From contig CACXQL010000001.1 of the NCBI GenBank assembly GCA_902769805.1, forward strand, positions 7,526-71,525: a stretch of DNA of 64,000 nucleotides, read 5' to 3'. Of this stretch, positions 5,326-55,505 are shown one piece after another. This stretch comes from an uncultured Prevotellaceae bacterium. GTDB taxonomy: Bacteria; Bacteroidota; Bacteroidia; Bacteroidales; Bacteroidaceae. The notes below the pieces were generated by a model, which saw nothing but the letters and a program-made list of their open reading frames with translations, was not told the DNA's origin and did not search any database. Both the position numbers and the translations under genes were made by a program. Each line of letters opens with the position of its first letter. Within the stretch, counting starts at the first letter, position 1.

Positions 5326-6384
5326 CTATAACGTTATCATCTTTGGTACCACCATTGGTTTCGTTTTCAGCAACATTGTACCCCAACTCAAGCCGAGTCC
5401 AAACGAAGAACCAAGGATTGTAGTAGGTTCTTTGCGCAATTTATCCGCTATTCTCGTCACCATCAGGGAGGGAATACTGGCACCACCAAGGTTTCCGAAC
5501 TCCTCTAAGTTATAGGGACATTTCTCCTGTGGCAATTTCAGTTTCTTCACCACTCTGTCCACGATCATCTTATTAGCCTGATGTATCAGGAAATAGTCAA
5601 TGTCCGTATTCCTGTTAATATTATAATCAACCATGAATTGCTCCACACTCTTGGGGGGACGATTGATGGCAAAAGAAAAGACGTTCATACCATTAATCAT
5701 CGTATGGATTGGAGCTCGAACAATGCCATTACCAAAGTCCTCGTACTCAAAACTCTCTGGTGTGGCTGGATGACGGAAGCCTCCATGAGGGGTCATCAAT
5801 GCCTCATAGCCCTTACCCAAGGTGTGGAAATCAATGATGATGTCATTGGCTGTTTCGTCATATTCCAATGCAAGTGCAGTTCCTCCGTCACCAAACAAAG
5901 GCACTCGGCTCTTGTCTTTCATCGATCCCATACGCAAAGCTGTATCACCAACAAGCACCAAGGCACGCTTGATCTGCCCTGTAGTCAGCAGATTACCTGC
6001 CACTGTGATGGCATACATACAGCCACAGCATCCCATAGGAATATCTACACAAAAACAATCCTCACTCAGTCCCATCCTGTATTGTAAGAGACAGGAGGTA
6101 GGTGGTGTGCGATAGTCACCTGTTACTGACTCAAAGATCAGTGCATTGATACTCTCCTTTTCCCAGCCGAGTTCTCCCAATAGTTTCTCACCAGCTGCCT
6201 GACACATATCTGAAGCACACATCGTATCAGGGGCGATATGACGGCTTTTGATGCCGACGGTCTTGTCAAAGACATCCGCCTCCTCTGGTGTAAACAGGTC
6301 TATCTCTGCCGTCTTCACCGTATGCTCCGGCACAGCCATTGCAACACCGGCGATATTCACATTTTTAATTTCCCAACGTGCCAC
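5326..6384 (-). CDS. 3-oxoacyl-ACP synthase III (FabH-like)
   Basis: Catalytic Cys region (MGCCG), HQAN, FGN, LFGDGG, FGLGLSWG; GTG start. Confidence 0.9.
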   Translation of the reverse strand: MARWEIKNVNIAGVAMAVPEHTVKTAEIDLFTPEEADVFDKTVGIKSRHIAPDTMCASDMCQAAGEKLLGELGWEKESINALIFESVTGDYRTPPTSCLLQYRMGLSEDCFCVDIPMGCCGCMYAITVAGNLLTTGQIKRALVLVGDTALRMGSMKDKSRVPLFGDGGTALALEYDETANDIIIDFHTLGKGYEALMTPHGGFRHPATPESFEYEDFGNGIVRAPIHTMINGMNVFSFAINRPPKSVEQFMVDYNINRNTDIDYFLIHQANKMIVDRVVKKLKLPQEKCPYNLEEFGNLGGASIPSLMVTRIADKLRKEPTTILGSSFGLGLSWGTMLLKTKPMVVPKMITL

Positions 6385-6426
6385 TTTGTATAATGTAAAA
6401 ATTAAAAAATGAAATAATGTAAAAAA

Positions 6427-6666
6427 CTATAGGATCACATCGTATTTGGCAAGGATTTCCTTACCCTTGGCGTACGAGGTCATCTCCATGATATCCTCTG
6501 GATCGAACATGATATCGAAGGCTTCCTCAAACTCGGCTATCAGACTCAGTTGATGGACAGAATCCCACTCGTCAACCGTTTCCTTACCATAATTGTCATT
6601 CAACTCCTCGGCTTTGGCACCGAATACTTGCACAAAGGCATTGTTGTACTTTTCTAAATTCTCCAT
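6427..6666 (-). CDS. Acyl carrier protein
   Basis: 79 aa, acidic, WDSV phosphopantetheine site. Confidence 0.88.
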   Translation of the reverse strand: MENLEKYNNAFVQVFGAKAEELNDNYGKETVDEWDSVHQLSLIAEFEEAFDIMFDPEDIMEMTSYAKGKEILAKYDVIL

Positions 6667-6700
6667 ATTATTTCTGATTATTATTTATTTCTTTATTATT

Positions 6701-6797
6701 TCACACAGATAACACAGATATCACAGAAAATTTCCTTTTATAGATGACAGACCATGGTCTGCTATTCTTTCCGTGTGTTCTGTGATTTCAGTGTGAC
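6701..6797. repeat. Short (97-bp) internally deleted copy of the GxxExxY-flanking repeat element
   Basis: Same left end (tcacacagat..cacagatatcacagaaa..tagatgacagaccatggtctgct) and right end (attctttccgtgt.ttctgtgatttcagtgtgac) as 8217-8426 and 8811-9018, lacking the ~110-bp centre. Confidence 0.92.
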
Positions 6798-6798
6798 C

Positions 6799-8205
6799 TT
6801 ACTTGTTTTTTAGTTTTGCATATAGAATCTTTCCCGCCTCGTTCTTCGGAATCTCATTGATGATTCTCACTTCGAAGGAAGAGGCGACAAGTTTTAACCT
6901 GCTCACGAGTTCTTCCTTCACTTGTTCTTTATAACTCTCACTGGTTAGATAGACCAGCATTTTCTCGTCAGTTCCTACACAAGCACATTCCAATCCCTGG
7001 AACTTACCTTTGATGATGCGCTCACACTCATCGAGTCCGACACGCATACCGAAGAGTTTCAGAAAACGTCCCATGCGACCGACGATGTAATAACAGCCGT
7101 CCTCATCGAAATAGGCAAGGTCACCTGTACGAATAAAACCATGACGCTCATCTCCTAATAGTAAGTCCTCACGACTACGAGCATAGCCCATCGTCACATT
7201 CTTACCTCGGTAGCACATCTCACCCTCCGTATTAGGTGTAGTGATGGGATTCCCGTCCATGTCAATCAATGAGAGTTCTGCATTAGGCACAGCGATTCCG
7301 ATACTGCCCACCTTCTCTATTGCCCACTTGGCTGGAAGCCATGCCATTCGTGCCGTACACTCCGACTGTCCGTAAGTAGCTATCCATTGTTTACCATTAT
7401 CGCGACAATACTCTGCAAACTTCAAATTCAGTTCCTTAGGCATCCGTCCCCCACCCTGTGTCAGAAGTGTCAGGTCTGGCAGGTCCATCCGGAAGAACCG
7501 CATCATGTTCAGTATCTCAAAACTATAGGGTACACCCGTAAAACTCGTAGCACGTTCTTCCTTAATGAACTTCCAGAAATTACGGTCGGTCATACTGAGG
7601 TTGGTGATCAGTACCGTCGCTCCCACATAGAAGTGGCTGAACACCATCGACAAGCCCATCGTATAATACAACGGAAGTACCATTAACGGACGGTCTTTCT
7701 CTGTCAGTTCAAAGAAGGTCGAGATATTCAGGGCTGCTGCCTCTATGTTGTCATACTTGTGGCGCACTAACTTCGGACTACCAGTAGAACCAGATGTTGG
7801 CAACAAATGCGAGAGTTCATTGTTCATGGGGCATGCCTCATTGCCAGTCTTCATCAGCGTATAGCCATAGAAAGAGCCAACTACTTCATAATCGTACTTA
7901 TCTGCTATCCCTGTTGGCACACAAACATACGGAGGCAGATACAAGTCAAACAGACTCGTATATAGACCTTCGTCTAAATGAGCATTGAGTATCAACGGAA
8001 CATTCCCTGCACAGATATTACCAATCGTCCAGGCAATACCACCCACATTATTCTCCACTAATAGGAAGAACAATGAACGATCCTGCATCAGGTGCTCTGC
8101 CTTCTCTGCAAAGTTTCTCAACTCACCGTATGTCAGTTGCTGACCCTGCGAGTCAATTGCTGCAACCGCCTCCTTCTTCCACTTATCTAAATTCAGAATC
8201 ATCAT
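6799..8205 (-). CDS. AMP-binding adenylation enzyme (acyl/aminoacyl-ACP ligase-like)
   Basis: PTSGSTGSPK, TYGQSE, RTGDLA, GR and PKNEAGK ANL-family motifs. Confidence 0.9.
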   Translation of the reverse strand: MMILNLDKWKKEAVAAIDSQGQQLTYGELRNFAEKAEHLMQDRSLFFLLVENNVGGIAWTIGNICAGNVPLILNAHLDEGLYTSLFDLYLPPYVCVPTGIADKYDYEVVGSFYGYTLMKTGNEACPMNNELSHLLPTSGSTGSPKLVRHKYDNIEAAALNISTFFELTEKDRPLMVLPLYYTMGLSMVFSHFYVGATVLITNLSMTDRNFWKFIKEERATSFTGVPYSFEILNMMRFFRMDLPDLTLLTQGGGRMPKELNLKFAEYCRDNGKQWIATYGQSECTARMAWLPAKWAIEKVGSIGIAVPNAELSLIDMDGNPITTPNTEGEMCYRGKNVTMGYARSREDLLLGDERHGFIRTGDLAYFDEDGCYYIVGRMGRFLKLFGMRVGLDECERIIKGKFQGLECACVGTDEKMLVYLTSESYKEQVKEELVSRLKLVASSFEVRIINEIPKNEAGKILYAKLKNK

Positions 8206-8216
8206 TCATTCTTATT

Positions 8217-8426
8217 TCACACAGATACCACAGATATCACAGAAATTTCTTTTTTTTATAGATGACAGACTATGGTCTTGCTTTACCTTCTCTGTAAAGG
8301 TTATATTTGTCGGAAGTATATTGAAAATACATTTTCATAAGTACTTCTGCCAAAGATAACTTATCATCTATAAAAAATATCTACGAAAAACTATTCTTTC
8401 CGTGTATTCTGTGATTTCAGTGTGAC
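8217..8426. repeat. ~210-bp repeat element with inverted nonamer-array ends (copy abutting the GxxExxY stop)
   Basis: Near-identical direct repeat of 8811-9018. Confidence 0.95.
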
Positions 8427-8797
8427 TAATTAACTATTCGTGTAATTGCATTAAGTATATTGTCCGTATTGAAATTCACAAGAAGTCCAACCCTTTTATC
8501 CAACAGTCGAAGATATGTAAGGAGTTGTTTACTAAACACCTTTTTCATCTCCTCTACAGATTTAAGCTCAACTATAACACTGTCTTCTACGAGAAGGTCA
8601 AGCCGAAGTTCTGTTTTCAACACATTATCTTTATACAGAATAGGTACTTGCTTCTGTCTTTCCACTTTGAGACCACGTTGTTCCAATTCAAAGACTAGTG
8701 CTTCCTCATAAACAGATTCAAGCAACCCAGGTCCCAGTGTCTTATATACATCATATATGGCTCCACGTATCTCATATGTAATCTCGTTTTCTGTCAT
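8426..8797 (-). CDS. GxxExxY protein (PD-(D/E)XK nuclease fold)
   Basis: GPGLLESVYEEAL, RLDLLVEDSVIVELKSV, QLLTYL and GLLVNF motifs; 123 aa. Confidence 0.95.
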   Translation of the reverse strand: MTENEITYEIRGAIYDVYKTLGPGLLESVYEEALVFELEQRGLKVERQKQVPILYKDNVLKTELRLDLLVEDSVIVELKSVEEMKKVFSKQLLTYLRLLDKRVGLLVNFNTDNILNAITRIVN

Positions 8798-8810
8798 TTA
8801 TCCATTAATC

Positions 8811-9018
8811 TCACACAGATACCACAGATATCACAGAAATTCCTTTTTTATAGATGACAGACCATGGTCTGCTTTACTTTCTCAGTAAAGGTTATATTTG
8901 TCGGAAGTATATTGAAAATACATTTTCATAAATACTTCTGCCAAAGATAACTTATCATCTATAAAAAAATATCTACGAAAAACTATTCTTTCCGTGTATT
9001 CTGTGATTTCAGTGTGAC
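8811..9018. repeat. ~208-bp repeat element with inverted nonamer-array ends (copy upstream of GxxExxY)
   Basis: Near-identical direct repeat of 8217-8426. Confidence 0.95.
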
Positions 9019-9021
9019 AAT

Positions 9022-9780
9022 TTAAATTGAGGCGCATCCGTTTACACCTAAGATCTCTCCAGAGATATAACTGGCTCTGTCGGAAGCCAAAAAAGCACAT
9101 GCATTGGCAACATCCTCAGGAGTACCAAGGCGGCCTAAACCAATGCGTGAAATACGCTGGTCTATCTTTGCCCCGTCACTCTCGTAAAGTTCGGCAAAAC
9201 GTTCTGTCTTTACGATACCTGGAGCCACCGCATTCACACGGATACCCTGCGGTGCCAATTCCTTGGCGGCAGACTTTGTGAAGGAGATGATAGCACCCTT
9301 CGTAGCAGAGTATGCCGACTGACCAGGGGAGCCTAATACCGCTGTCACTGAAGCGATGTTCACAATAGAACCACCACCTGTACGTGCCATCAGGCGTGAA
9401 CAGAGTTGTACCAGTTCTATGACGGCTATCACGTTGATGCGGAACATCAGTTCCGTCTCCTGCCGCACAATCATGCCAATCTTTTTGTTGAACACCACAC
9501 CTGCATTGTTCACCAAGGTGTCAATACGCTTCTCAGCCTTGAAGATGCTCATAAAAGTATTCTTCACCGCTGCTGCATCCGACACATCGAAATACATAGG
9601 GATGACACGGGTATTGTTTCGTTCTCCACATTCCTTTGCCCACTCGTCCATGGTGCCTTCACGCAAGTCACAAGCATACACTATGGCACCATCAGCAGCA
9701 AACTGTTCCGCGATGCCCTTGCCAATCCCCTGAGCAGCACCAGTAATGATGCACACTTTATCTTGAAGTAATCTCTCCAT
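9022..9780 (-). CDS. SDR oxidoreductase (FabG-like)
   Basis: TGAAQGIG, NNAG, YSATK, NAVAPG; start placed at MERLL (9780). Confidence 0.9.
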   Translation of the reverse strand: MERLLQDKVCIITGAAQGIGKGIAEQFAADGAIVYACDLREGTMDEWAKECGERNNTRVIPMYFDVSDAAAVKNTFMSIFKAEKRIDTLVNNAGVVFNKKIGMIVRQETELMFRINVIAVIELVQLCSRLMARTGGGSIVNIASVTAVLGSPGQSAYSATKGAIISFTKSAAKELAPQGIRVNAVAPGIVKTERFAELYESDGAKIDQRISRIGLGRLGTPEDVANACAFLASDRASYISGEILGVNGCASI

Positions 9781-9781
9781 A

Positions 9782-10537
9782 TCAATACAGCGTTTTTCCT
9801 CCATCAATAATCAATGAATGTCCTGTCACAAACGATGAAGCATCTGACAAGAGGTAGACAATGCCTAACGCCACTTCACGTGGTTCTCCATATCGTTTCA
9901 TCGGGTATGTCTGCATATCACGTTGTCTGTCCTCTTCTGAATAAGTTCCTGGTTTAAGCAGTCCTGTATTAATCATACCAGGATTTACGCTGTTGCAGCG
10001 GATACCGCTAACTGCAGACTCTAATGCCACGTTCTTCATGAACACCTGAAGCGCACCTTTCGACGAACCATACATCGCATTGGCTATTGCCGTAGTGTAA
10101 ACACCACCAATAGACACCGTAAACACTATCGATGCTCCTTTTACAAACTTCTTTTTCTTCAGCAGGCGCTGTGTCAGGAACATTGGAGCCATTGCATTAA
10201 TAGACATAATACGCTCTAGATCCTCACGGTTAATGAATTTCACCAGAGCTGGTTTGGTGACACCGGCATTACTGACAAAGCCATCCAGTTTATCTATCTC
10301 ACCAACGAGTCTGTCTATTTCTTCGTCAATAGTCAGGTTGGCGACGATATATCGATGCAGGTCACTGTCTTCAAGTTCTGCTAAAGTTGTTCTCAACCCA
10401 TCCTCATTGATATCTGTAAGGATGAGGTTTGCTCCAAGTTTGGCACATTCGACAGCAGTTGCTCTACCTATACCCCCTGCAGCGCCAGTAATCAAAATCG
10501 ATTTACCCTCAAGCGTAAACGGATTATAACTTGCCAT
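9782..10537 (-). CDS. SDR oxidoreductase (FabG-like)
   Basis: TGAAGGIG, SNAG, YGSSK, NSVNPG, IDGG. Confidence 0.9.
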   Translation of the reverse strand: MASYNPFTLEGKSILITGAAGGIGRATAVECAKLGANLILTDINEDGLRTTLAELEDSDLHRYIVANLTIDEEIDRLVGEIDKLDGFVSNAGVTKPALVKFINREDLERIMSINAMAPMFLTQRLLKKKKFVKGASIVFTVSIGGVYTTAIANAMYGSSKGALQVFMKNVALESAVSGIRCNSVNPGMINTGLLKPGTYSEEDRQRDMQTYPMKRYGEPREVALGIVYLLSDASSFVTGHSLIIDGGKTLY

Positions 10538-10767
10538 TACAATTTAGATTTCACAATGTTGAATAAATCCTCAACTGTCATAGACTCGCGAATATCTTCA
10601 CCCTGTAACGACACGTTATATTCCTCGTCCACCATTCCAATCACACCAAGTGCAATCAGAGATGACCACTCATCCAATTCCTTGAACTTTGTTTCTGCCT
10701 TAATCTCACTTGCATCAGTATCATCAAACTGATTTGCAAAGTTTTCAATAAAATCTTTTAGTTCCAT
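10537..10767 (-). CDS. Acyl carrier protein
   Basis: 76 aa, acidic, EWSSL site, TVEDL. Confidence 0.88.
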   Translation of the reverse strand: MELKDFIENFANQFDDTDASEIKAETKFKELDEWSSLIALGVIGMVDEEYNVSLQGEDIRESMTVEDLFNIVKSKL

Positions 10768-35871: not shown

Positions 35872-36387
35872 TTATATCTTGACCTTAATAACAACTTTTT
35901 TGACTTCTTCGGGGGCGTCGATGCAGAGTTGAGGCATGTGAGCGTCGTGTGGGAAGAAAAGGGCGAAGGAGGTCAAAGGTCGAAGGTCAAAGGTCAAAGG
36001 TCGAAGGTCTAAGGTCAAAGGACGAAGGTCAAAAGTCAAAGGTCGAAGGTCGGAGGTCGAAGGACGAAGGTTTGATTCGTAGAAGGCGGCATCGGTATCA
36101 GGGTTGTAGGGTTGGGTTTCCTGCAGTTCGTCCACGGGGAGACAAGCGATTTTCTCGGTGCCCTTGAGGAGGTACTGGATGTCGATGTTCTTCTGATGGG
36201 CTTCGTAGCCATGCTCGTTGATTGTCTTTGTCGTGTATTCTGACACAATGGCTTTGACTCGAGGATTGATCTCGTAGGTGCCGGGGGCTGTGTCGGGGGA
36301 CATTTCCTTGAGGTACTTCAGACCAGCATAGATGTCGTCAGAGAGACCTTTGTACAGTTCTATATTTTTAATCTTATCGTAAACCAT
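35872..36387 (-). CDS. YhcH/YjgK/YiaL family protein with in-frame heptamer-array insertion
   Basis: EAHQKNIDIQY, G-x-E, FALFFPHDAHMP, VKKVVIKV; (LRPLTFD)n insert from 35969-36073. Confidence 0.9.
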   Translation of the reverse strand: MVYDKIKNIELYKGLSDDIYAGLKYLKEMSPDTAPGTYEINPRVKAIVSEYTTKTINEHGYEAHQKNIDIQYLLKGTEKIACLPVDELQETQPYNPDTDAAFYESNLRPSTSDLRPLTFDLRPLTLDLRPLTFDLRPLTSFALFFPHDAHMPQLCIDAPEEVKKVVIKVKI

Positions 36388-36393
36388 TTAAAT

Positions 36394-36522
36394 AAGGTCT
36401 AAGGTCTAAGGACTAAGGTCTAAGGACGACCTTTGACTTTTGACTTTTGACTTTTGACCTTAGTCTTTTGACTTTTGACCTTTGACTTTTGACCTTTGTC
36501 CTTAGGCCTTAGTCCTTTGACC
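36394..36522. repeat. Intergenic paired inverted heptamer arrays (AAGGTCT arm, then TGACTTT/TGACCTT arm)
   Basis: Read directly from the sequence. Confidence 0.9.
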
Positions 36523-36523
36523 A

Positions 36524-37363
36524 TTAGACAGAAGGACCTGTGTAGGTGGCTTTGACCTGTTCGTAGCTCTCGAGGGTACCGATGTCGTAGCGCTTGCCGG
36601 GCATCTCGTAGGTATAGACAGGAGTCTGGGTGGAGAGCCAGGCGATGAAGCTGCCGGGGGCATCGATGCCACAACCGCTGGCGATGCCCTTCTTAATCAG
36701 GCGAGCATCTTCACGGGTGTAGTAGTAGAAGGCAGGGATGCACCAGTGACTCTTGGGATTCGCGGGTTTCTCCTCCATGGAGAGGATACGACCATCTGTG
36801 TCTATCTCTGCCACACCTGTCTTATGGAGTCGTGCCTCGTCAGCCTCGTAGTAGCGCATGACACACGTTGCGTTCTTCTCTTTCGCATAGCGGATAAAGC
36901 CCTCCAAACTGAAGTCCAGCAGGTTGTCACCTGCCATGACGAGGAGGTCGTCGTCGAGTTTCAATTTATCAATGGCGAAGTCGATATCCTTTACCGCCCC
37001 AAGGCGAGTGGCGTTCGACGATGTGCCATCGTCGAGGACGACGATGTCTAAGGACGAAGGACGAAGGTCTGAGGACGAAGGTCCAAGGTCTAAGGTCGAA
37101 GGACTAAGGTCTAAGGTCGAAGGACGAAGACTGCTTTTGGCCTTTGACTTTTGACTTTTGACCTTTGACCATTCATTGAAAATGGGGGCGAACTTATGGT
37201 TGCTGATGACGATGTATTCGTTGATCAAGCCGGTCTTGTTCATATCGTCGATGAGCCAGTCAAGGATGGGCTTGCCTGCCACCTCCAGTAATGGCTTCGG
37301 GAAGTTTTCGGTCAATGGGTAAAGTCTTGTAGCATACCCAGCTGCTAGGATCAAACATTTCAT
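36524..37363 (-). CDS. Sugar-1-phosphate nucleotidyltransferase with in-frame heptamer-array insertion
   Basis: ILAAGYATRLYPLT-x-x-x-PKPLL, AGDN, EEKP, DIGT; insert at 37047-37171. Confidence 0.9.
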   Translation of the reverse strand: MKCLILAAGYATRLYPLTENFPKPLLEVAGKPILDWLIDDMNKTGLINEYIVISNHKFAPIFNEWSKVKSQKSKAKSSLRPSTLDLSPSTLDLGPSSSDLRPSSLDIVVLDDGTSSNATRLGAVKDIDFAIDKLKLDDDLLVMAGDNLLDFSLEGFIRYAKEKNATCVMRYYEADEARLHKTGVAEIDTDGRILSMEEKPANPKSHWCIPAFYYYTREDARLIKKGIASGCGIDAPGSFIAWLSTQTPVYTYEMPGKRYDIGTLESYEQVKATYTGPSV

Positions 37364-38934: not shown

Positions 38935-39644
38935 GGCCGTCTCTTACTAAGGGACTCTAAATTTTTTCTTCACAACTTCCCAACCCCTCTTGCCTTTTTT
39001 CTTCACAACTCCCCAACCCCTCTTGCCTTTTTTCTTCACAACTCCCCAACCCCCTCTTGCCTTTTTCTTTCACAACTCCCCAACCCCTCTTGCCTAAGAG
39101 GGGCTTCAACCTATCCCTAAATCCCTTTCCTCTCTCGGAAAGGGACTAAAAGTCGTCGTTGCGGAAACGCCGTATTTTTTGACGCCGCCTACGCTAAACG
39201 CTGGGCGTCGTAAGGACGAGATATGGATATTCTTCAATTCTCCATTACATCTAATAAACACCCAACGTTCAGCGTAGGCGTATAAAAAATCACGCCGGAC
39301 CTTTGATGGTCCGAGCGTACCTTAATGTAAGAGCGACGAGCAGGAGCGGTTAAGCCCCTCCATATAGGGAGGGGATGGGGGTAGGTGGATGTTTCTTTTA
39401 GTTCTTTTCTTTGCGCCAAAGAAAAGGACAATTGAGGTTGGGAGGTAAAAACACAGGGAAACCCTGCATTATAGCCGTCCCTTACTAAGGGACTCTAAAT
39501 CTTTGCGCCAAAGAAAAGGACAATTGAGGTTGGGAGGTAAGAACACAGGGGAACCCTGCATTATAGCCGTCCCTTATCAAGGGACTCTAAATCTTTGCGC
39601 CAAAGAAAAGGACAATTGAGGTTGGGAGGTCCTCCAATTTGAAC
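38935..39644. repeat. Mosaic of palindromic repeat modules (33-bp tandem x4, ~150-bp block, 92-bp tandem x2.4)
   Basis: Modules recur at 51652-52238. Confidence 0.88.
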
Positions 39645-39816: not shown

Positions 39817-41025
39817 TCATGCAGCTTTCAGAGGAATGGTTTTATAATAGGAAATATGACTCCTTACGACATTCTCAAAACCTAATTCTCTCATGGCGAG
39901 ACCAAGATGAACTCTTGTACTCCTGTCATTCTTGACGGCAGGATATTCCCGCTGTATCAGTTTAAGGATATCCCCACAGTTCATATATCTTGCCCCTTCT
40001 CCTTCACTGGGTTTTCTGAGAAGGATGCCGACAATCTCTGCAATATCCTTCTGTTCCATATAGTTGAGGTTCAGCTCCTGAATACGGATAACTTCCTCAT
40101 TATTAAACCAGTAAGGTGTCTTTAGTTCTCTCAGTTCATGAAGCACCTGTGCATAGAGTTGCTCATAATTGATATCACCCGTATTGTCAATATACTGTCC
40201 TTGGGGTATCAACAGACAGATATAACGTCGGCTACCTGTGGCATCCGTCAGGGGATGAGGATTATTGGTCGTAGCAACAAAGGAGGCAAACCTCGGTCTA
40301 TCCTCCTGACTGCATCCGAAAATAGGTCGTCCGTTCACTTTCGACTTCGATAGTGTCTGTTTCAAGGCAGGATGCTGACTGGGGCGTATCGCATCCAACT
40401 CATCGAGGTTGACCAAGAGATTGTTCGTCAATGCCATCTCCTTGTCGAACTTGTTCGAGAGGTTCAGATGGTCAAGGTAGTATTGTCTCAGATGAGGAGG
40501 CAACAGTCTCGTCAAGAAGGTCGTCTTACCACATCCTTGAGAACCTATCAGTGTAGGTACACACTCATTCCCGTGAATGGTATCCATCTGCAGCCAGTGA
40601 GCAACAGCAGAACGGAACCATACAGAAAGGAATCCAAGCTGCTCAGTACTGAGACCTGGTATCCTTCCAAACAATTGCGCCACATGGTTTTGTCCATCCC
40701 ATTGGGGAAGACCGTCCAAATACTCCTGGATAGGATTGAACAAAGGTACCTCTTCGGAGTTGACAAACTCCATCATCTTCGCTTTGGGACTACCCTTCTC
40801 ACAGATATCCTCGCGACGGGCTCGGATGATGATGCTGTTGAGTGCCTGTTGAGTCAGAGGTCTGTAGGCAGACTGACTTTCTCCTGACAAAATTGCGAAC
40901 TCCACCTTTCCACTCAACACGTTACGACGGAAGAGGTAGTTGTCTTGTAGAAACTGCTCGATTTCGAGTGTTGTTTCCTTTGAATCACTGATGGCATTGC
41001 CACTAATAACTAATTTTTCACTCAT
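39817..41025 (-). CDS. VapE (virulence-associated E) family ATPase with DUF3874-like C-terminus
   Basis: FRRNVLSGKVEF, FNPIQEYL..LPQWDG, LIGSQGCGKTTF (Walker A), VNLDELD, SFVATTN, LTDATGSRRY. Confidence 0.88.
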   Translation of the reverse strand: MSEKLVISGNAISDSKETTLEIEQFLQDNYLFRRNVLSGKVEFAILSGESQSAYRPLTQQALNSIIIRARREDICEKGSPKAKMMEFVNSEEVPLFNPIQEYLDGLPQWDGQNHVAQLFGRIPGLSTEQLGFLSVWFRSAVAHWLQMDTIHGNECVPTLIGSQGCGKTTFLTRLLPPHLRQYYLDHLNLSNKFDKEMALTNNLLVNLDELDAIRPSQHPALKQTLSKSKVNGRPIFGCSQEDRPRFASFVATTNNPHPLTDATGSRRYICLLIPQGQYIDNTGDINYEQLYAQVLHELRELKTPYWFNNEEVIRIQELNLNYMEQKDIAEIVGILLRKPSEGEGARYMNCGDILKLIQREYPAVKNDRSTRVHLGLAMRELGFENVVRSHISYYKTIPLKAA

Positions 41026-42686: not shown

Positions 42687-42825
42687 GTCAAAGGTCAAAG
42701 GTCGAAGGTCAAAGGATTCCCGAGCAGAGCTCGCCTACCCGTAGCCTTTCAAAGGTCGACCTTAGTTCTTAGTCTTTAGTCCTTAGTCCTTTGACCTTAG
42801 TCCTTTGACCTTAGACCTTTGACCT
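42687..42825. repeat. Composite element: AAGGTCR arm, conserved ~50-bp core, inverted TAGTCCT/TGACCTT arm
   Basis: Core aaggattcccgag...ctcgcctacccgtagcctttcaaa.gtcg.ccttag is shared with 45458-45509. Confidence 0.88.
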
Positions 42826-42829
42826 TATA

Positions 42830-45310: not shown

Positions 45311-45623
45311 AAAGTCAAAGGTCGAAGGTCAAAGGTCAAAGGTCGAAGGTCAAAGGTCAAAGGTCAAAGGTCGAAGGTCAAAGGTCAAAGGTCGAAGGTC
45401 GAAGGTCAAAGGTCAAAGGTCGAAGGTCGAAAGTCAAAGGTCAAAGGTCAAAAGTCAAAGGATTCCCGAGTAACTCGCCTACCCGTAGCCTTTCAAAAGT
45501 CGTCCTTAGCCCTTAGTCTTTAGTCCTTAGTCCTTAGACCTTAGTCCTTAGTCCTTAGTCCTCAGTCCTTAGACCTTAGACCTTAGTCCTCAGTCCTTAG
45601 TCCTTAGACCTTAGTCCTTAGAC
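45311..45623. repeat. Large composite element: ~21 AAGGTCR units, core, ~16 TAGTCCT/TAGACCT units
   Basis: Read directly; fills almost the whole upxY-wza spacer. Confidence 0.92.
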
Positions 45624-46151
45624 CTATACCGGCTTGCAATACCACCTCGAGATGCGGAGCATGACGCTGATGCCTCCTACGGTCTTGATGAACCAGTATT
45701 TCTGGTTGCTCTTATGGAGCTTTCCTCGAATACCGGCAAACTGACCATGAACAACCTCCACCTCAGTACCCGGTTTCAACTCCGCCTCTGCCGCATCCAT
45801 GAACTCCACCGGTGTCTTCACGTAGTCGGGGTCACAGAGCAGACGGAAGTCTGTCATCTCACGGTCGGAAATCTCACTGATACGGTCGTCACCCTTGTTC
45901 TTCATCAACTGAAGGGGCATCGGATACCTCGTCAGCACTTTCCGTAAGTCGTCCTCCTGCATGGTCTTCTGCAGAAAGACGTAGCCGTGAACCACGGGAA
46001 CCAGTACCCTGCGAGGCTTTGGCTCATTGTGCACCACCTTCTCTTTGTATGTCATAGGTATGAAATAAGTGAGTCCATTTTCCTTCAGGAAAGACCCCAC
46101 ATCCATCTCCCTACGATTGAAGGTTCGTATCACGAGCCAACTGTTTTCCAT
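45624..46151 (-). CDS. upxY: UpxY family transcription antiterminator (NusG paralog)
   Basis: WLVIRT..RE, FIPM, VPVVHGYVF, C-terminal KOW motif VEVVHGQFAGIRG; start at MENSW. Confidence 0.9.
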   Translation of the reverse strand: MENSWLVIRTFNRREMDVGSFLKENGLTYFIPMTYKEKVVHNEPKPRRVLVPVVHGYVFLQKTMQEDDLRKVLTRYPMPLQLMKNKGDDRISEISDREMTDFRLLCDPDYVKTPVEFMDAAEAELKPGTEVEVVHGQFAGIRGKLHKSNQKYWFIKTVGGISVMLRISRWYCKPV

Positions 46152-46247: not shown

Positions 46248-49200
46248 TTATTCCCATTTTATTGACTGGAGGAGGGAGAGGGCGGACTCGACGGAGGGGA
46301 TATCGGAGAGGAGGAGGGAGCGCTTGTTATGGAGGTCACGGAACTGGCAGCGACGAGGATTCTGGGCGACAAAAGAGAGGATGGCATCAAAGGCAGGACT
46401 CTGATAGAAAGGACTGTCGGGATTGGAGACGAAGAACAGTGTCATACGTCCCTGTTTCAGCATAATCTTCTCACAACCAAGCTGTTGTCCGAGACGACGC
46501 AAAGGCACGACACGCATCAGTTCCTCCCCCACCTGAGGCACAGGACCAAAGCGGTCAATCAATCGCGAACGATACGCTGCCAACTGCTCGTCCGTATGCA
46601 GGTTATCCAGTTCCCGATACAACAGCATCCGCTCACTATCCGACGGCACATACTGGTCAGGGAAATAGAGGGCAAGGTCGGTGTCTACGGAGGCCTCGGA
46701 GACGAATTGCTCGGAGTACTCAGAGTTCTCAGAGTACTCCGAGAACTCGGAAGCAATCTCCTTTACTGCCTCATTCAGAATCTTCTGGTACGTCTCGTAA
46801 CCGAGGTCGGCGATGAAGCCAGACTGTTCGGCACCTAAGAGATTACCGGCTCCACGGATATCCAAGTCCTGCATGGCAATCTGGATGCCACTGCCGAGGT
46901 CACTGAAGTTCTCCAACGCCTCCAGGCGGCGGCGACTCTCCTGGGGGAGGTCGGCCAAAGGAGGAGCCAGGAGATAACAGAACGCCTTACGGTTGCTGCG
47001 CCCTACCCTACCTCGCATCTGGTGCAGGTCAGAGAGTCCGAAATGATGGGCTCCATTGATAATGATAGTATTGGCATTCGGGATATCGATACCGTTCTCG
47101 ATAATGGTTGTGGAGAGCAGCACGTCATAATCGTAATTAATGAAGTCATAGACCACCTGTTCCAGTTCGTCGGGCTTCATCTGTCCATGACCGATGGCGA
47201 TACGAGCTTCCGGCACATAGCGGTGTATCATGTCAGCGATACGTCGCAGGTCGTTGATACGGGGATTGACAAAGAACACCTGTCCGTTGCGTGACAACTC
47301 GAAATTGATAGCATCAGCGATGATCTCAGGTCCAAAAGTATGTATCTCTGTATGAATAGGATAGCGGTTGGGGGGAGGTGTCTGGATGATACTCAGGTCA
47401 CGGGCTCCCAAGAGAGAGAACTGAAGGGTACGGGGAATCGGTGTGGCTGTCAGAGTCAGTGTATCGACACTGGTCTTCATCTGGCGCAGCTTCTCCTTGG
47501 TGGACACTCCGAATTTCTGTTCTTCATCGATGATCAGGAGTCCGAGGTCCTTAAACTTTACTGTTTTACCGATGAGTCTATGAGTACCGATGATGATATC
47601 AATCTTACCGTCGGCAAGATCCTGTAGGAGTTCCTTGGTCTGCTTGGCAGAACGGGCTCGTGTGAGGTAGTCCACCCTCACGGGGAAGTTCTTCAGGCGC
47701 TCCTTGAAAGTCTGGTAGTGCTGGTAGGCAAGAACGGTAGTAGGTACCAATACCGCCACCTGCTTGGAGTCACATGCCGCCTTAAAGGCTGCACGGACAG
47801 CCACCTCCGTCTTTCCGAAGCCTACATCCCCACAGACCAGGCGATCCATCGGTCGCGCCTGTTCCATGTCTGCCTTCACCTCATTCGTCGCCTTCAACTG
47901 GTCGGGAGTGTCCTCATAGAGGAACGATGCCTCTAATTCATGTTGCATGAAACTGTCGGCACTAAATGCAAAGCCTTTCTCTTTCCGTCTTGCCGCATAG
48001 AGCTTGATGAGGTCACGGGCAATATCCTTGATCTTCGACTTGGTACGCTCCTTCATGCGTTCCCACTGACCTGTTCCCAACTGGGAGAGGCGTGGGGGTT
48101 CCCCATTATCCTGTGCCTTGTATTTGCTGACCTTATAGAGTGAATGAATAGATACGTAGATGGCTCCACCACCCTGGTAGATGATTTTGATCATTTCCTG
48201 ATAACTCGGAGAACTCTGAGTATTCGGAGAACTCTGAGAACTCTGAGAACTCTGAGTGATCGGCATCCTGACCAATCCGCCGAATTTTCCGATGCCATGA
48301 TCGACATGCACGACATAGTCACCGACTTCAAACTGACGAATCTCCTTCAGCGTCAGTGCCACCTTACCACTTCGTGCCTTGTCAGAGCGCAGTGTATATT
48401 TATGGAAGCGGTCGAAGATCTCATGGTCGGTGAAGACGCAGAGCTGCAGGTCATGGTCGACGAAACCGGCATGGAGGGCGGTGGTTATGTAGTTGATAGT
48501 TGATAGTTGATAGTTTAAAGTTGAGTTCTCGGAGTGCTCGGAGTGCTCGGAGTGCTCGGAGTTCTCAGAGTTCTCGGAGTTCTCAGAGAGAATCTCCTCC
48601 AACCGCTGCAACTGTTTCTTGCTATCGGCAAGAACATAGAGATGATAACCCTTCGACTGGAAGTCGGAAAAGGACTCACGGAGCAGGTCGAAGTTCTTAT
48701 GAAACAAGGGCTGCAGGGTGGTATGGAATGTCAGGGTGGCATCAGGCTTCTCCATCGGACGATGCCCGAACTCTATCTTCTTGTAAGAGGCGATAGCCTC
48801 CATGAACTGGTTACCGTCTATCAAGGGAACAGTATCACCTGTCTCCTGATAAGTACGGTCTATGGCATCATGGACATACTGGAGGTCTTTGGCAACGACT
48901 AACGTCCCTTCGGGGAGGTAATTGAAAATTGAAAATTGAAAATTGAAAATTGAAAATTGGCCTTCGTCCTTTGACCTTTGACCTTCGTCCTTTGTCCTTT
49001 GACCTTCGTCCTTTGTCCTTTGTCCTTTGACCTTCGACCTTTGACCTTCGTCCTTTGACAACTCCGGGACGATGCTGATCTGGGATTTGCGGTCACGGGA
49101 GAGTTGGTCTTCGACCTCAAAGGTACGGATGGAGTCGATATCGTCACCGAAGAAGTCGATGCGGAAAGGATACTCACTACTGAAACTATAGACGTCGAGG

Positions 49201-49952
49201 ATGGAGCCTCGCAAGGCATACTGTCCCGGTTCATAGACATAATCCACCTCCTGAAAGCCAAAGTCATGCAAGGTCGTCGTGATCTCCTCTACACTCACTG
49301 TCTGTCCCTGTTCCAACACCAATGTCCGTTCATTCAACTGTTCCTGCGATACCACCTGTTCTGCAAGAGCCTCAGGGTAGGTGACGATTGAGAGGCCTAA
49401 GGACTGAGGACTAAGGTCTAAGGCTGACCTTTGACCTTCGACCTTTGACCTTTGACCTTCGACCTTTGACCTTTGACCTTCGACCTTTGACCTTTGACCT
49501 TCGACCTTTGACCTTTGACCATTAAGAAATGTGAGGACTTCGGTACGGAGGATTTCGTTGGCGGGGTCACGTTGGGCATATTTGATGGAACGACGGTAGG
49601 AAGAGGGGAAGAACAATACCCTCTCCATTCCTAGCATCTGTTTGAGGTCGTGATAGAAATAGCCTGCCTCCTCTTCGTCGGAGAGGATGATTAATTGAAA
49701 ATTGAAAATTAACCTTTGACCTTCGACCTTAGACCTTTGACCTTTGTCCTTTGACCTTTGACCTTCCACCTTTGACCTTTGACCTTCGACCTTTGACCTT
49801 TGACCTTCCAAGGCAGCGAAGAGCATGGGGGCAGAAGAGGCAACAAGACCTTCGAGGAAAATCGTTTTTACCGATTTTTCCTCGATGGCTTTGCGTAGGG
49901 CTTCCACCTGGGGACCATGCCCATATAACTCTACTAATTCCTGTATCGTCAT
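46248..49952 (-). CDS. mfd: Transcription-repair coupling factor with six in-frame repeat insertions
   Basis: RGSILDVY, GDYVVHVDHGIG, CGDVGFGKTEVA, DEEQKFGV, TATPIPRTL, QMRGRVGR, DLDIRGAGNLLG. Confidence 0.97.
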   Translation of the reverse strand: MTIQELVELYGHGPQVEALRKAIEEKSVKTIFLEGLVASSAPMLFAALEGQRSKVEGQRSKVEGQRSKDKGQRSKVEGQRLIFNFQLIILSDEEEAGYFYHDLKQMLGMERVLFFPSSYRRSIKYAQRDPANEILRTEVLTFLNGQRSKVEGQRSKVEGQRSKVEGQRSKVEGQRSALDLSPQSLGLSIVTYPEALAEQVVSQEQLNERTLVLEQGQTVSVEEITTTLHDFGFQEVDYVYEPGQYALRGSILDVYSFSSEYPFRIDFFGDDIDSIRTFEVEDQLSRDRKSQISIVPELSKDEGQRSKVKGQRTKDEGQRTKDEGQRSKDEGQFSIFNFQFSIFNYLPEGTLVVAKDLQYVHDAIDRTYQETGDTVPLIDGNQFMEAIASYKKIEFGHRPMEKPDATLTFHTTLQPLFHKNFDLLRESFSDFQSKGYHLYVLADSKKQLQRLEEILSENSENSENSEHSEHSEHSENSTLNYQLSTINYITTALHAGFVDHDLQLCVFTDHEIFDRFHKYTLRSDKARSGKVALTLKEIRQFEVGDYVVHVDHGIGKFGGLVRMPITQSSQSSQSSPNTQSSPSYQEMIKIIYQGGGAIYVSIHSLYKVSKYKAQDNGEPPRLSQLGTGQWERMKERTKSKIKDIARDLIKLYAARRKEKGFAFSADSFMQHELEASFLYEDTPDQLKATNEVKADMEQARPMDRLVCGDVGFGKTEVAVRAAFKAACDSKQVAVLVPTTVLAYQHYQTFKERLKNFPVRVDYLTRARSAKQTKELLQDLADGKIDIIIGTHRLIGKTVKFKDLGLLIIDEEQKFGVSTKEKLRQMKTSVDTLTLTATPIPRTLQFSLLGARDLSIIQTPPPNRYPIHTEIHTFGPEIIADAINFELSRNGQVFFVNPRINDLRRIADMIHRYVPEARIAIGHGQMKPDELEQVVYDFINYDYDVLLSTTIIENGIDIPNANTIIINGAHHFGLSDLHQMRGRVGRSNRKAFCYLLAPPLADLPQESRRRLEALENFSDLGSGIQIAMQDLDIRGAGNLLGAEQSGFIADLGYETYQKILNEAVKEIASEFSEYSENSEYSEQFVSEASVDTDLALYFPDQYVPSDSERMLLYRELDNLHTDEQLAAYRSRLIDRFGPVPQVGEELMRVVPLRRLGQQLGCEKIMLKQGRMTLFFVSNPDSPFYQSPAFDAILSFVAQNPRRCQFRDLHNKRSLLLSDIPSVESALSLLQSIKWE

Positions 49953-51651: not shown

Positions 51652-52238
51652 CTTCTTCACAACTCCCCAACCCCTCTTGCCCTTTTCTTTCACAACTCCC
51701 CAACTTTTCTTTCACAACTCCCCAACCCCTCTTGCCTTTTTTCTTCACAACTCCCCAACCCCTCTTGCCTAAGAGGGGCTTCAACCTATCCCTAAATCCC
51801 TTTCCTCTCTCGGAAAGGGACTAAAAGTCGTCGTTGCGGAAACGCCGTATTTTTGACGCCGCCTACGCTAAACGCTGGGCGTCGTCAGGACGAGGTTTGG
51901 AGGTCCTCCAATTTGAACGGTTTGGTCGGTTCGGACCATCAAAGGTCCGGCGTGTCTTTTATCTTAAAAAAATTATAATAAAAAACATGGCGAACCCCGA
52001 AGGGGCGAAAGCTTGAGAGCCATACCAAGACTTTGATGGAGGGCGGTTTCTGCCCGGAATCAATTTAGTCCTTGCCTGATCGTATCTTTAGCACGCTTTG
52101 TACCTTTAGGTCAAAGAAAGATTGGCGAGGATTTAGGAGTGGTTGAAGCCCCTCTTAGGCAAGAGGGGTTGGGGAGTTGTGAAAAAACTTTTGGTCCTTT
52201 ACGAAAAGGACGATTGAGGTTGGGAGGTACCCTCCAAT
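51652..52238. repeat. Second mosaic of the same palindromic repeat modules as 38935-39644
   Basis: 51744-51894 is near-identical to 39069-39220; inverted modules at 51931-51955, 52076-52118 and 52141-52183. Confidence 0.88.
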
Positions 52239-53289: not shown

Positions 53290-54165
53290 TTAGGGTGAGA
53301 GTAAGGGAATTAGGAATTTACGAAGGGTTTCGACAGGGAGGCCGCGACGAGCGGCATAGTCATGGAGTTGGTCTTCCCCAATTTTTCCGATAGAGAAATA
53401 ATGCGCCTCAGGGAGTGCTATCATCAGACCACTGACACTGGCATGAGGTTTCATCGCCCCACTCTCCGTGAGACGGATACCTATCTGTTTGAAGTGTATC
53501 AGTTCGTCCAATACAAAGTTCAGACTGGTGTCTGGCAGAGAGGGATAGCCAACAGCAGGACGGATGCCCTGAAACTTCTCGGCATGCAGTTCTTCCATAG
53601 TCAACTGCTCGTCAGGGGCATAACCCCAATCCTTTCGACGTACCTCTTCATGGAGTTTCTCTGCTGCTGCCTCCGCCAAGCGGTCCGCCAACAACTGAAC
53701 CATCATCTTCATATAGGCATCCTGGTCGAAGTCTTTCTCCAACCCATGATCGACACTGGTGGCAAAGACCCCTATCTTATCGTGATCAGGATGAATGAAG
53801 TCAGAGAGGCAGAGGCAGTCCCCATGTTGCTGACGCAACATGGGCATGTCTAAGGTCTGAGGTCTAAGGTCTAAAGACTCTGAACCTTTGTCCGTTGACC
53901 TTTGACCTTCGACCTTTGACCTTTGACCATTGTCCGTTGACCTTTGACCTTTGACAGAAATAACGATATCATCGTTATGACTATGGCAGTCGAAGAGTTC
54001 AAAGAGGGCATAGACCTGATACCTGGCATCAAGTTGACGGAGGATATCCTCTGCCTCAGCCCTATTCTTCTGTTGTTCGACAGGGTCGTGCAACTGCCAC
54101 GCATGATAGAAATACGCCCAGTTGATATAGGGTTGTAAGTCGTGTATGCGATAGGTACGTATCAT
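53290..54165 (-). CDS. Stand-alone B12-dependent methionine synthase activation domain protein, with heptamer insert
   Basis: YINW, LRQQ, CLSDFI, LADRLAEAAAE, GIRPAVGYP, PHASVSG; insert at 53849-53955. Confidence 0.88.
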   Translation of the reverse strand: MIRTYRIHDLQPYINWAYFYHAWQLHDPVEQQKNRAEAEDILRQLDARYQVYALFELFDCHSHNDDIVISVKGQRSTDNGQRSKVEGQRSTDKGSESLDLRPQTLDMPMLRQQHGDCLCLSDFIHPDHDKIGVFATSVDHGLEKDFDQDAYMKMMVQLLADRLAEAAAEKLHEEVRRKDWGYAPDEQLTMEELHAEKFQGIRPAVGYPSLPDTSLNFVLDELIHFKQIGIRLTESGAMKPHASVSGLMIALPEAHYFSIGKIGEDQLHDYAARRGLPVETLRKFLIPLLSP

Positions 54166-55505
54166 CTGAAAGCGATCTCTTCTCCGATATAGTTAGTATC
54201 CACGTTCCCGTCCATATAAACGGAATGTCCGTTACAGAGTGTGCGCTCCACACGCCATGAGAAGGTATGACCTTCCATCGGACTCCATCCGCACTTACTC
54301 AGAATACTGTCGGGTGTGACTGTCCAAGGGGTGTTCGGACGCACCAATACCAGGTCTGCCCGATAACCACGACGGATAAAGCCTCTGTTCCGCACCTCAA
54401 AGAGACGTGCCGGGTTATGACACATCAGTTCGACGAGTCGTTCCAAGGACAACACGCCCTGATCAACCAATTCGAGCATGGTCACCAGCGAGAACTGAAT
54501 CATCGGCATACCACTGGCTGCCTTCACACAGCCCCCTTCCTTCTGAGACAACAGATGAGGGGCATGATCGGTACCTATCACGGTGATACGCCCATCAGTC
54601 AGTGCTTGTCGCAAGGCTTCCCTGTCATTCGCTGTCTTGATGGCAGGATTACACTTGATACGAGTACCTAAGCGCTGATAGTCAGCGTCAGAAAAATAGA
54701 GGTGGGAGATCACCGCCTCAGCGGTGATCAGAGAGCTCGGAGCAAAGAGTTCCAACTCTTTGCCCGTCGTGAGATGAGCAACGTGCAGGCGGGTATGATG
54801 CTTCTGTGCCAGTTCTACCGCCAGTCTCGTACTCTCATAACAAGCCTCTTCACTACGTATCTCCGGATGATGCGTCACATCAGGGTCCTCCCCATACTGT
54901 GCCTTTGCCATTGCCATGTTACGGTTGATGATACTTGTATCCTCACAATGTGCCATAAGGGGTAACGGGGTTGTCTTGAAGATACGCTCCAGTGCCTCCT
55001 GGCGGTCAACCAGCATGTTTCCCGTAGAAGAACCCATGAAGAGCTTGATACCAGGAATACGATGGATATCCAATTGAGGGAAAGTATCTACATTATCATT
55101 CGTGGCACCATAGAAGAAACTGTAGTTGACATGACTCTTCTGACGGGCGATGGCAAATTTCGCTTCCAAAGTCTCTAAAGAAGTAGTCTGAGGATTGGTG
55201 TTAGGCATGTCGAAGAAAGAGGTCACTCCTCCTGCCGCTGCTGCCCTACTCTCCGTATCCATGTCAGCCTTCTCTGTCATTCCCGGTTCCCGGAAATGCA
55301 CATGGTCGTCAATGATGCCTGGGAGGATGTAACAGCCTGACGCGTTGATTAACGCGTCGTCGAAGGTCGAAGGACTAAGACTGCCTTTGACTTTAGTCCT
55401 TTGACCTTTGACAATATCAACGATATTCCCGTCTTCGATAATGATAGTACCATCGAAGGTACGACCTTCATTGACAATCGTTCCACCTTCGATGACTATT
55501 CTCAT
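54162..55505 (-). CDS. pyrC: Dihydroorotase
   Basis: DDHVHFREPG, AAAAGGVT, DMPNT, KLFMG, AHCE, KCNPAIK, TDHAPH; insert at 55360-55412. Confidence 0.92.
   Translation of the reverse strand: MRIVIEGGTIVNEGRTFDGTIIIEDGNIVDIVKGQRTKVKGSLSPSTFDDALINASGCYILPGIIDDHVHFREPGMTEKADMDTESRAAAAGGVTSFFDMPNTNPQTTSLETLEAKFAIARQKSHVNYSFFYGATNDNVDTFPQLDIHRIPGIKLFMGSSTGNMLVDRQEALERIFKTTPLPLMAHCEDTSIINRNMAMAKAQYGEDPDVTHHPEIRSEEACYESTRLAVELAQKHHTRLHVAHLTTGKELELFAPSSLITAEAVISHLYFSDADYQRLGTRIKCNPAIKTANDREALRQALTDGRITVIGTDHAPHLLSQKEGGCVKAASGMPMIQFSLVTMLELVDQGVLSLERLVELMCHNPARLFEVRNRGFIRRGYRADLVLVRPNTPWTVTPDSILSKCGWSPMEGHTFSWRVERTLCNGHSVYMDGNVDTNYIGEEIAFR

Follow-up and report, generated by a model that had tools for sequence, protein, structure and literature searches.

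A GxxExxY gene with a predicted nuclease fold and its hairpin repeat units in the operon gaps of an uncultured Prevotellaceae bacterium

In a stretch of 64,000 nucleotides (nt) from the genome of an uncultured Prevotellaceae bacterium (contig CACXQL010000001.1, positions 7,526 to 71,525; hereafter the window), a small gene of the GxxExxY family stands between two near-identical repeat units, B and C, and a third unit, A, which lacks 113 nt of its centre, lies one gene away. Each unit carries arms of 9-mers at both ends, inverted relative to each other. Comparison with the sequences of related loci revealed empty, arms-only and filled alleles of the same operon junction, several nuclease lineages, a fixed polarity of the arms, derivative forms, a structured core between the arms and signs of exchange between copies. 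In its distribution among these loci the cassette of gene and arms behaves as mobile. With a probability of about 0.55, we favour the reading that the cassette is gained, lost and swapped in operon gaps, and that the nuclease likely cuts the folded repeats, which recombination by the host would then copy into adjacent gaps and between strains.

Layout and alleles of the cassette

The transcribed order on the minus strand is the stop codon of a short-chain dehydrogenase/reductase (SDR) gene, unit C, the GxxExxY gene, unit B, a gene for an AMP-binding ligase, unit A and a gene resembling those of acyl carrier proteins (ACP). A preliminary description of this DNA had noted the near-identical repeats hugging the gene, the third copy with both ends and no centre, and the placement of all copies at gene junctions without disruption of the operon; these observations are confirmed. 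Units B and C share 94.6 % identity (blastn), or 201 of 206 bases aligned without gaps. The intact gene overlaps unit B by one base, the last of its TAG (8426-8428), and 13 bases separate its ATG from unit C. In the sense direction the units start 0-3 nt past a stop codon, C behind the SDR, B behind the GxxExxY gene and A behind the ligase, and according to the list of open reading frames (ORFs) no frame at the three units is broken. Folding of unit C yielded -69.6 kcal/mol (z = -8.1) and folding of unit A a z of -3.9; 0 of 200 shuffles were as good in either case. The scan for promoter-like sites was uninformative (8 versus 7.0 expected). Terminator-like sites numbered 4 versus 1.4 expected, and none was sense-oriented at the 3' end of a unit. 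The RNA run X20 contained no long piece of this organism, and X19, an RNA run by guess, contained one piece of 327 nt over the gene.

Neither blastn nor an arm-motif scan detected further copies of the unit in the genome of the window (G000; 2.67 Mb, 85 % complete). The three units within 2.3 kb are its whole complement, and the TIGR04256 gene is single. This confinement would suit a one-off local duplication, the alternative kept by the preliminary description. An assembly artefact could be suspected from the runs X1 and X4, which show almost no depth for the centre specific to unit C and have one 210-bp contig of the B type filling both places. However, the gene-unit and unit-neighbour junctions were recovered in contigs of four runs (X1, X4, X8 and X10), which makes an artefact unlikely. 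The unit-gene-unit plan recurs with 60-70 % divergent cores at the loci L134, L185 and L252, and arms are enriched around homologues throughout the family. Duplication and artefact are therefore largely refuted already and very improbable.

A scan with the AMP-ligase yielded 80 orthologous loci. Alleles of the SDR-ligase junction were compared where the ligase was at least 84 % identical and both the ligase start and the SDR end were in view; after removal of identical ones, 52 alleles including the window were retained. Forty-two had neither the gene nor 9-mer arms, seven had the gene and three had arms only. Gene-less derivatives with arms are unit A and the alleles L053, L071 and L080. Such non-autonomous copies, like the empty sites, had been anticipated in the preliminary description. 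Among the 42 alleles, several have bare spacers of 10-20 nt and many have 7-mer arrays that also start at the stop codon. In L040, L049 and L078, the minimal filled alleles, the stop codon is followed by three 9-mers, the gene, three inverted 9-mers, a short tail and the next ATG; here the gene is the loop of a single palindrome. L053 has lost the gene except for its first and last codons, and both arms are still present. L080 has one unit and its sister L058 (support 100) has unit, gene and unit.

On the ligase tree, representing the host, the state of the gene changes seven times, with at least four changes forced by well-supported branches, and shuffled labels do equally well; the carriers of the gene lie scattered on this tree. 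On the nuclease tree, built from 125 columns and with many forks open, the eight genes at this junction need three changes (three across the 5-95 % bootstrap range), at least two of them forced. At least three nuclease lineages occupy the one junction; the nuclease of L058 is 36 % identical and has different arms. In the identity matrix of the junction alleles, the cells of L058 are alignment artefacts and were excluded. Repeated gain at the SDR-ligase junction appears to be the simplest reading of these trees, blurred by loss and by recombination of the ligase itself. Of the 10 alleles with an element at the SDR junction, 5 also had arms between the ligase and the ACP gene; of the 39 alleles lacking such an element, 2 did (Fisher p 0.002; kin are not independent). 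This tie to the upstream element fits local spread in cis. The 60 closest GxxExxY genes have many and unrelated neighbours. In the loci L032-L089, the spacers of the SDR-ligase and ligase-ACP junctions are filled by at least six unrelated types of 7- or 8-mer arrays, which start at or overlap the stop codon. Judged from these spacers, several repeat families share the gene junctions of such near-orthologous operons as landing sites.

Some features would suit an ordinary miniature inverted-repeat transposable element (MITE) that carries the GxxExxY gene as cargo and is moved in trans by the transposase of another locus: inverted arms at the ends, derivatives with deletions and loops of variable content. 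The preliminary description had expected an alignment of empty and filled sites to define any target duplication. The empty alleles were found, but a duplication is not visible in pairs that are only ~80 % identical. Furthermore, no other arm copy in G000 lies beside any transposase, and the arm type tracks the nuclease clade. A MITE is thus an improbable explanation.

Exchange between copies is indicated by the identity to L034, which amounts to 80-88 % in the SDR, 93-97 % in unit C, 92 % in the next codons and 67-80 % in the rest of the gene. Fourfold sites are identical at 11 of 14 positions in the first 40 codons, 8 of 28 in the later codons and 73 of 172 in the ligase. The gene of the window is likely a mosaic, in which the tract from the stop codon through unit C and the 5' end of the gene would be a recent recombinational exchange. 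The evidence from the four runs consists of assembled contigs, not reads. The contig shared by B and C in X1 and X4 and a collapse of 144 bp at twice the depth in X10 indicate that the copies are homogenised within strains. A contig of X8 has centre sequence at site A, 33 letters past the junction, hence A likely arose from a full-length unit. The deleted unit A is present in X10, with a gene piece 98 % alike. A joint of 8250-8844 in X10 was considered as a pop-out of the gene and rejected as repeat collapse, since the gene contig has full depth.

The ligase between A and B differs more among strains (92 % identity in its 5' two-thirds in X8, 89.5 % over a stretch in X10) than the cassette, and many neighbours are presumably polysaccharide genes. 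Both points, together with the order repeat-gene-repeat as in NTS-ssnA-NTS, described as a modulator of transformation (PMC11893778), favour a host-serving role similar to that of the Ssn nucleases: the enzyme would cut repeat-bearing single-stranded DNA and tune the recombination of incoming alleles at a surface-polysaccharide locus, and the repeats would spread passively. On the other hand, a single junction that is occupied patchily, and by more than one nuclease lineage, looks selfish rather than domesticated, as do the three repeat copies in G000, which compare with hundreds for NTS. A service to the host is therefore possible, yet rather unlikely.

Arms, protein and core among GxxExxY homologues

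The loci L001-L260 yielded 145 distinct genes with flanks of 300 nt, which were reduced to 118 below 90 % identity. The sample is nearly all Bacteroidota and was picked by similarity or top score. Arrays of period 9, detected without a motif, flanked 45 of the 118 genes on both sides; among 1926 ORFs of G000 there were 6 such cases and among 1180 shuffles none, so that the predicted company of gene and inverted 9-mer arms holds. Other periods on both sides (period 8 in 8/118, period 10 in 5/118) mark other subfamilies. An arm motif, defined after seeing the data, was present in 81 genes and absent in 37. The order left arm, gene, right arm was found for 23 of the 118 genes and the reverse for one; a whole hairpin on each side, as in the window, was found for ten. 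In this sample the most frequent form with arms is one left arm, the gene and one right arm, with fixed arm polarity; the direct repeats of the preliminary description are not the basic unit. The distance from the upstream stop to the start of the arms, measurable in 46 cases, has a median of 21 nt and is at most 15 nt in 21 of them, a proximity that is common, not strict. The tree of arm words and the protein tree agree, with 29 changes versus 63 for shuffled labels. Both neighbours are co-oriented with the gene in 77 of the 118 cases. Outside the Bacteroidota, arm-like words were recognized by eye in four plasmid records (4 of 8 matches inspected), among them a minimal form between fabD and fabG on a Sphingomonas plasmid and a hairpin-gene-hairpin arrangement on a Gemmatirosa plasmid. 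Among the 72,556 plasmid records of PLSDB, 8 matched GxxExxY, and most of these are very large replicons, thus the cassette is essentially chromosomal.

The sole Pfam and NCBIfam matches of the 123-amino-acid protein are PF13366 (E 1.1e-41, 142.3 bits against a cut-off of 22) and TIGR04256 (E 1e-43, 148.4 bits against a cut-off of 35), of which it is a full member. All 38 homologues in the alignment share the residues E27, D67, E77, K79 and Y95. The predicted structure (pLDDT 94.7) matched best to Cas4 SSO0001 (Foldseek E 5e-4), followed by restriction-type folds and Hjc; the VIA comparison with Cas4 SSO0001 gave a middling Z of 7.8 and a root-mean-square deviation of 3.8 for 99 aligned residues. 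For this model the fold scores point to the PD-(D/E)XK superfamily, as assigned before, and name no substrate. Nuclease activity is predicted from the putative catalytic residues, which are intact. The protein is 89 % identical to that of L034, yet fourfold sites are identical at only 19 of 42 positions, which indicates purifying selection on the protein. Scores over the cut-off were obtained in 162 of 301 genomes of the genus and 85 of 151 genomes of the phylum, with up to 8 copies per genome in the genus and 13 in the phylum, and the homologues number at least 7999. A tandem pair of GxxExxY genes at L139:1462-2358 is split by direct repeats, as unequal recombination would give. PDDEXK_3 (PF13366) is listed as a family of unknown function with multiple transfers, and the passage on it is silent on flanking repeats and mobility (PMC3424549).

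The preliminary description had presented the unit as an imperfect palindrome and missed the conserved centre. Its ~113 nt form a four-way junction, and relatives at 60-70 % identity occur inside the arms of other elements. This core was seen at 23 sites. All 19 aligned cores, folded singly, give the same four-helix junction, in which a linker of 3-4 nt joins the outer helix to the long one. Pairs are formed in 97.4 % of 627 cells, versus 35-47 % in slid controls, and 93 cells changed on both sides versus 28 in shuffles; these values refer to the same sequences from which the structure was derived, and kin are not independent. The branch-point bases are invariant and the outer stems covary. 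Three held-out cores from G604 gave the same fold once and nearly so twice. A weak partial core in G524 (E 8e-4) folds differently and was not counted. A period-9 doublet lies within 80 nt of 21 of the 23 core sites, versus 294 of 2000 random pairs, and the other two adjoin arms by eye. The arms around the cores fall into at least three types, and the identity of the adjacent nucleases to that of the window ranges from 38 to 100 %, which suggests that the core has crossed between subfamilies. In a genome search of limited sensitivity, with 23 candidates scored per genome, strong matches occurred in 6 of 150 genomes of the genus, in one further genome among 149 of the family and in 0 of 149 of the order; 9 of 13 strong sites have a GxxExxY gene no more than 1 kb away. 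Four cores surround one gene at L185:1827-2917, three of them in tandem downstream, and one keeps the fold despite an insertion of ~25 nt at the tip of its long helix. Other long structured loops were found within arms up- and downstream of the gene in L187 and upstream in L167 and L203 (z -3 to -7); the piece in L187 resembles the long helix of the core in a different arrangement.

Both strands of the core fold equally (26 versus 26 G-U pairs), which fits a DNA structure, and the non-Watson-Crick cells comprise 7 G-U versus 6 A-C. Most cores are sense to an adjacent gene, and one is antisense inside an operon (L112/L259). Rfam returned 0 matches at E 1 for 6500-9200 and a single sub-threshold match, to a eukaryotic miRNA, for six related loci; ARAGORN found 0 tRNAs. 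Because no strand is favoured, one copy is antisense and an Rfam match is missing, the core may be read, with modest confidence, as a DNA fold rather than an RNA. Intervening sequences of 23S rRNA have a stem-loop layout. By analogy, the arms could base-pair within the mRNA of the operon so that the gene is looped out, with the core as a processed or bound RNA. The enclosure of the gene by arms in the minimal forms, the co-oriented neighbours, the very stable RNA folding and the sense orientation of most cores agree with such an RNA-level element. It is opposed by the balanced G-U pairs, the antisense copy and the absence of an Rfam family, and it leaves the gain at new junctions unexplained; we consider it improbable.

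Further candidates for the core were rejected. In viral contigs 102 pattern matches were obtained, but 0 of 100 tested scored with the model, so they are chance. As a decayed ORF the core has stops in five of six frames. In the hairpins of integron attC sites, the 5' arm bears the AAC box and the 3' arm the GTT box; the order in the long helix of the core is the opposite, GTT then AAC (no integrase search was made). Rfam contained no matching ribozyme or retron family, and no reverse transcriptase was seen beside the cores inspected.

Proposed mechanism and known systems

If the cassette is mobile in the way we favour, the protein would recognise the arm or the junction fold in single-stranded DNA and nick or cut there. 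Repair from another copy would write the unit just past a stop codon, without a target duplication. Gene conversion may keep B and C alike, recombination between direct copies may remove the gene, as in L080 compared with L058, and internal deletion could yield forms such as unit A. The position after the stop codon may reflect targeting or just the survival of harmless insertions. Several results weigh against this reading. A variable polysaccharide locus in which the gene is lost repeatedly and the host drives recombination would fit nearly as well. The agreement between arm and protein trees is explicable by linkage alone, the 37 genes without an arm of the defined motif and the periods 8 and 10 depart from the pattern, and fewer than half of the measurable arms lie within 15 nt of the stop. 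The core is rare, so the system does not need it. The fold matches are weak, with no Z above 7.8, and neither cutting nor an excised circle nor a new insertion was seen, the material being assembled contigs.

The cassette might even be a transposase-free homing element, in which a Cas4-like nuclease of 123 amino acids recognises the 9-mer arms that belong to it and, in the manner of a Holliday-junction resolvase, cleaves the four-way DNA junction of fixed sequence into which the core folds by itself; host repair would write the unit after stop codons, and the core would be a hyperparasite moved between arm families and nuclease subfamilies. Although this is doubtful, each pair of nuclease and arms would then be a natural sequence- and structure-specific cutter.

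Ssn nucleases of the GIY-YIG type have NTS/SRM hairpin repeats on both sides of the gene in 42 % of homologues (Chenal et al. 2025, PMC11893778). Common to both systems are a small single-domain nuclease gene, hairpin repeats on both sides (45/118 here by period 9), and a proposed origin as an element with pairing of nuclease and repeat. In contrast to Ssn, the enzyme is of the PD-(D/E)XK type rather than GIY-YIG (cd10448), the arms are tandem 9-mers, three local copies stand against hundreds, and the present system is known from sequence alone. REPIN-RAYT systems (Bertels and Rainey 2011, PMC3337134) likewise have inverted doublets that form hairpins, lie outside genes and occur in tandem arrays, and a short gene for the enzyme with repeats of its own type on its flanks. 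The preliminary description had inferred a selfish system of the REP/RAYT kind, in which the nuclease would spread with its repeat or propagate it. The gene does travel with its arms and may propagate them, but a REP-like dispersal throughout the genome is not seen in G000, where the three copies form one locus. Nor is the enzyme a RAYT: its family matches and Cas4-like fold differ from the HUH/Y1 transposase, and the GxxExxY gene behaves as mobile itself and often has several copies per genome, in contrast to RAYT genes, which have been described as immobile and present once (PMC3337134). Insertion sequences and MITEs share the inverted ends around one gene (L040, L049, L078) and internally deleted derivatives (A, L053); here, no recognised transposase and no target duplication were seen, and the spacer appears replaced, not interrupted. 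Intervening sequences of 23S rRNA with an ORF (PMC4990558) resemble the cassette in the small ORF within the loop of a terminal stem; the cassette differs in its position between protein genes, its nuclease fold and its lack of RNA-strand bias. The cassette appears to work like REPIN-RAYT or Ssn-NTS, yet its enzyme is of neither defining kind. A literature search of main texts, mostly open-access ones, found no description of GxxExxY genes with flanking repeat arms; a passage that mentions GxxExxY names the domain and no more. We conclude that the arrangement is real and no local accident, and belongs to the nuclease-plus-hairpin-repeat kind, with a structured passenger, undescribed in the literature searched.

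Surroundings of the cassette and significance of the family

The features of the locus are compiled in Table 1. The SDR may truly start at a later ATG, as alignments of orthologues often begin at residue 8-13. We take the gene downstream of unit A to be an ACP from its size, motif and context. Positions 5326-10767 comprise a FabH-ACP-ligase-SDR-SDR-ACP block within the polysaccharide locus, and upstream of the SDR the gene content differs widely among orthologous loci.

Table 1 Positions and properties of the cassette and its neighbouring genes in the window
Feature	Position	Strand	Properties
ACP-like gene downstream of unit A, 79 amino acids	6427..6666	-	ORF only; no Pfam match at E 0.001
Unit A	6701..6797	-	two 9-mer arms and last helix of core; 113-nt internal deletion; 1 nt after AMP-ligase stop
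AMP-binding (ANL) ligase, host gene between B and A	6799..8205	-	PF00501, E 1.9e-42
Unit B	8217..8426	-	left arm ~8398-8426, core, right arm ~8217-8245
Core of unit B, four-way junction	8258..8371	-	model R1 match 8256-8374, 97.9 bits (copy in training set); fold
GxxExxY gene	8426..8797	-	Cas4-like PD-(D/E)XK fold; putative catalytic E27, D67, E77, K79 intact
Likely exchange tract (unit C and first ~30 gene codons)	8702..9018	-	92-97 % identity to L034, versus 67-88 % in the coding DNA beside it
Unit C	8811..9018	-	left arm ~8990-9018, core, right arm ~8811-8839; 3 nt after SDR stop
Core of unit C, four-way junction	8850..8962	-	outer helix, one long and two short hairpins
SDR (FabG-like), upstream host gene	9022..9807	-	PF13561, E 1.8e-60

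Elsewhere in the window, 7-mer arrays, often as inverted pairs, occur at 35970-37170, 42687-42827, 45314-45625, 48920-49808, 53848-53955 and 55359-55412. Several are in frame within genes, e.g., in an ORF of 1234 amino acids (46248-49952, presumably Mfd-like) with runs of the QRSKVEG type. They likely represent a second, heptamer repeat system. A different type of 9-mer array lies in frame at 46710-46748, 48198-48256, 48523-48588 and 58429-58477 (SENSE/SQSSQ runs), in ORFs which we assume to be Mfd-like and DnaX-like; no partner gene was identified for these arrays, G000 having one GxxExxY gene only. Tandem repeats of 33 bp and 92 bp at 38962-39630 and 51656-51769 are near the ORF 39817-41025, presumably VirE-like.

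GxxExxY proteins form a very large family without known function, for which this locus offers a defined set of substrates, i.e., arms, core and deleted unit. With natural empty, arms-only and filled alleles at hand, the function is directly testable. If the favoured reading is true, PD-(D/E)XK enzymes would be the third nuclease superfamily, after HUH and GIY-YIG, that is paired with flanking hairpin repeats. The cassette could supply small site-specific nucleases, and it could help to explain the quick turnover of spacers and alleles in the surface-polysaccharide operons of Bacteroidales.

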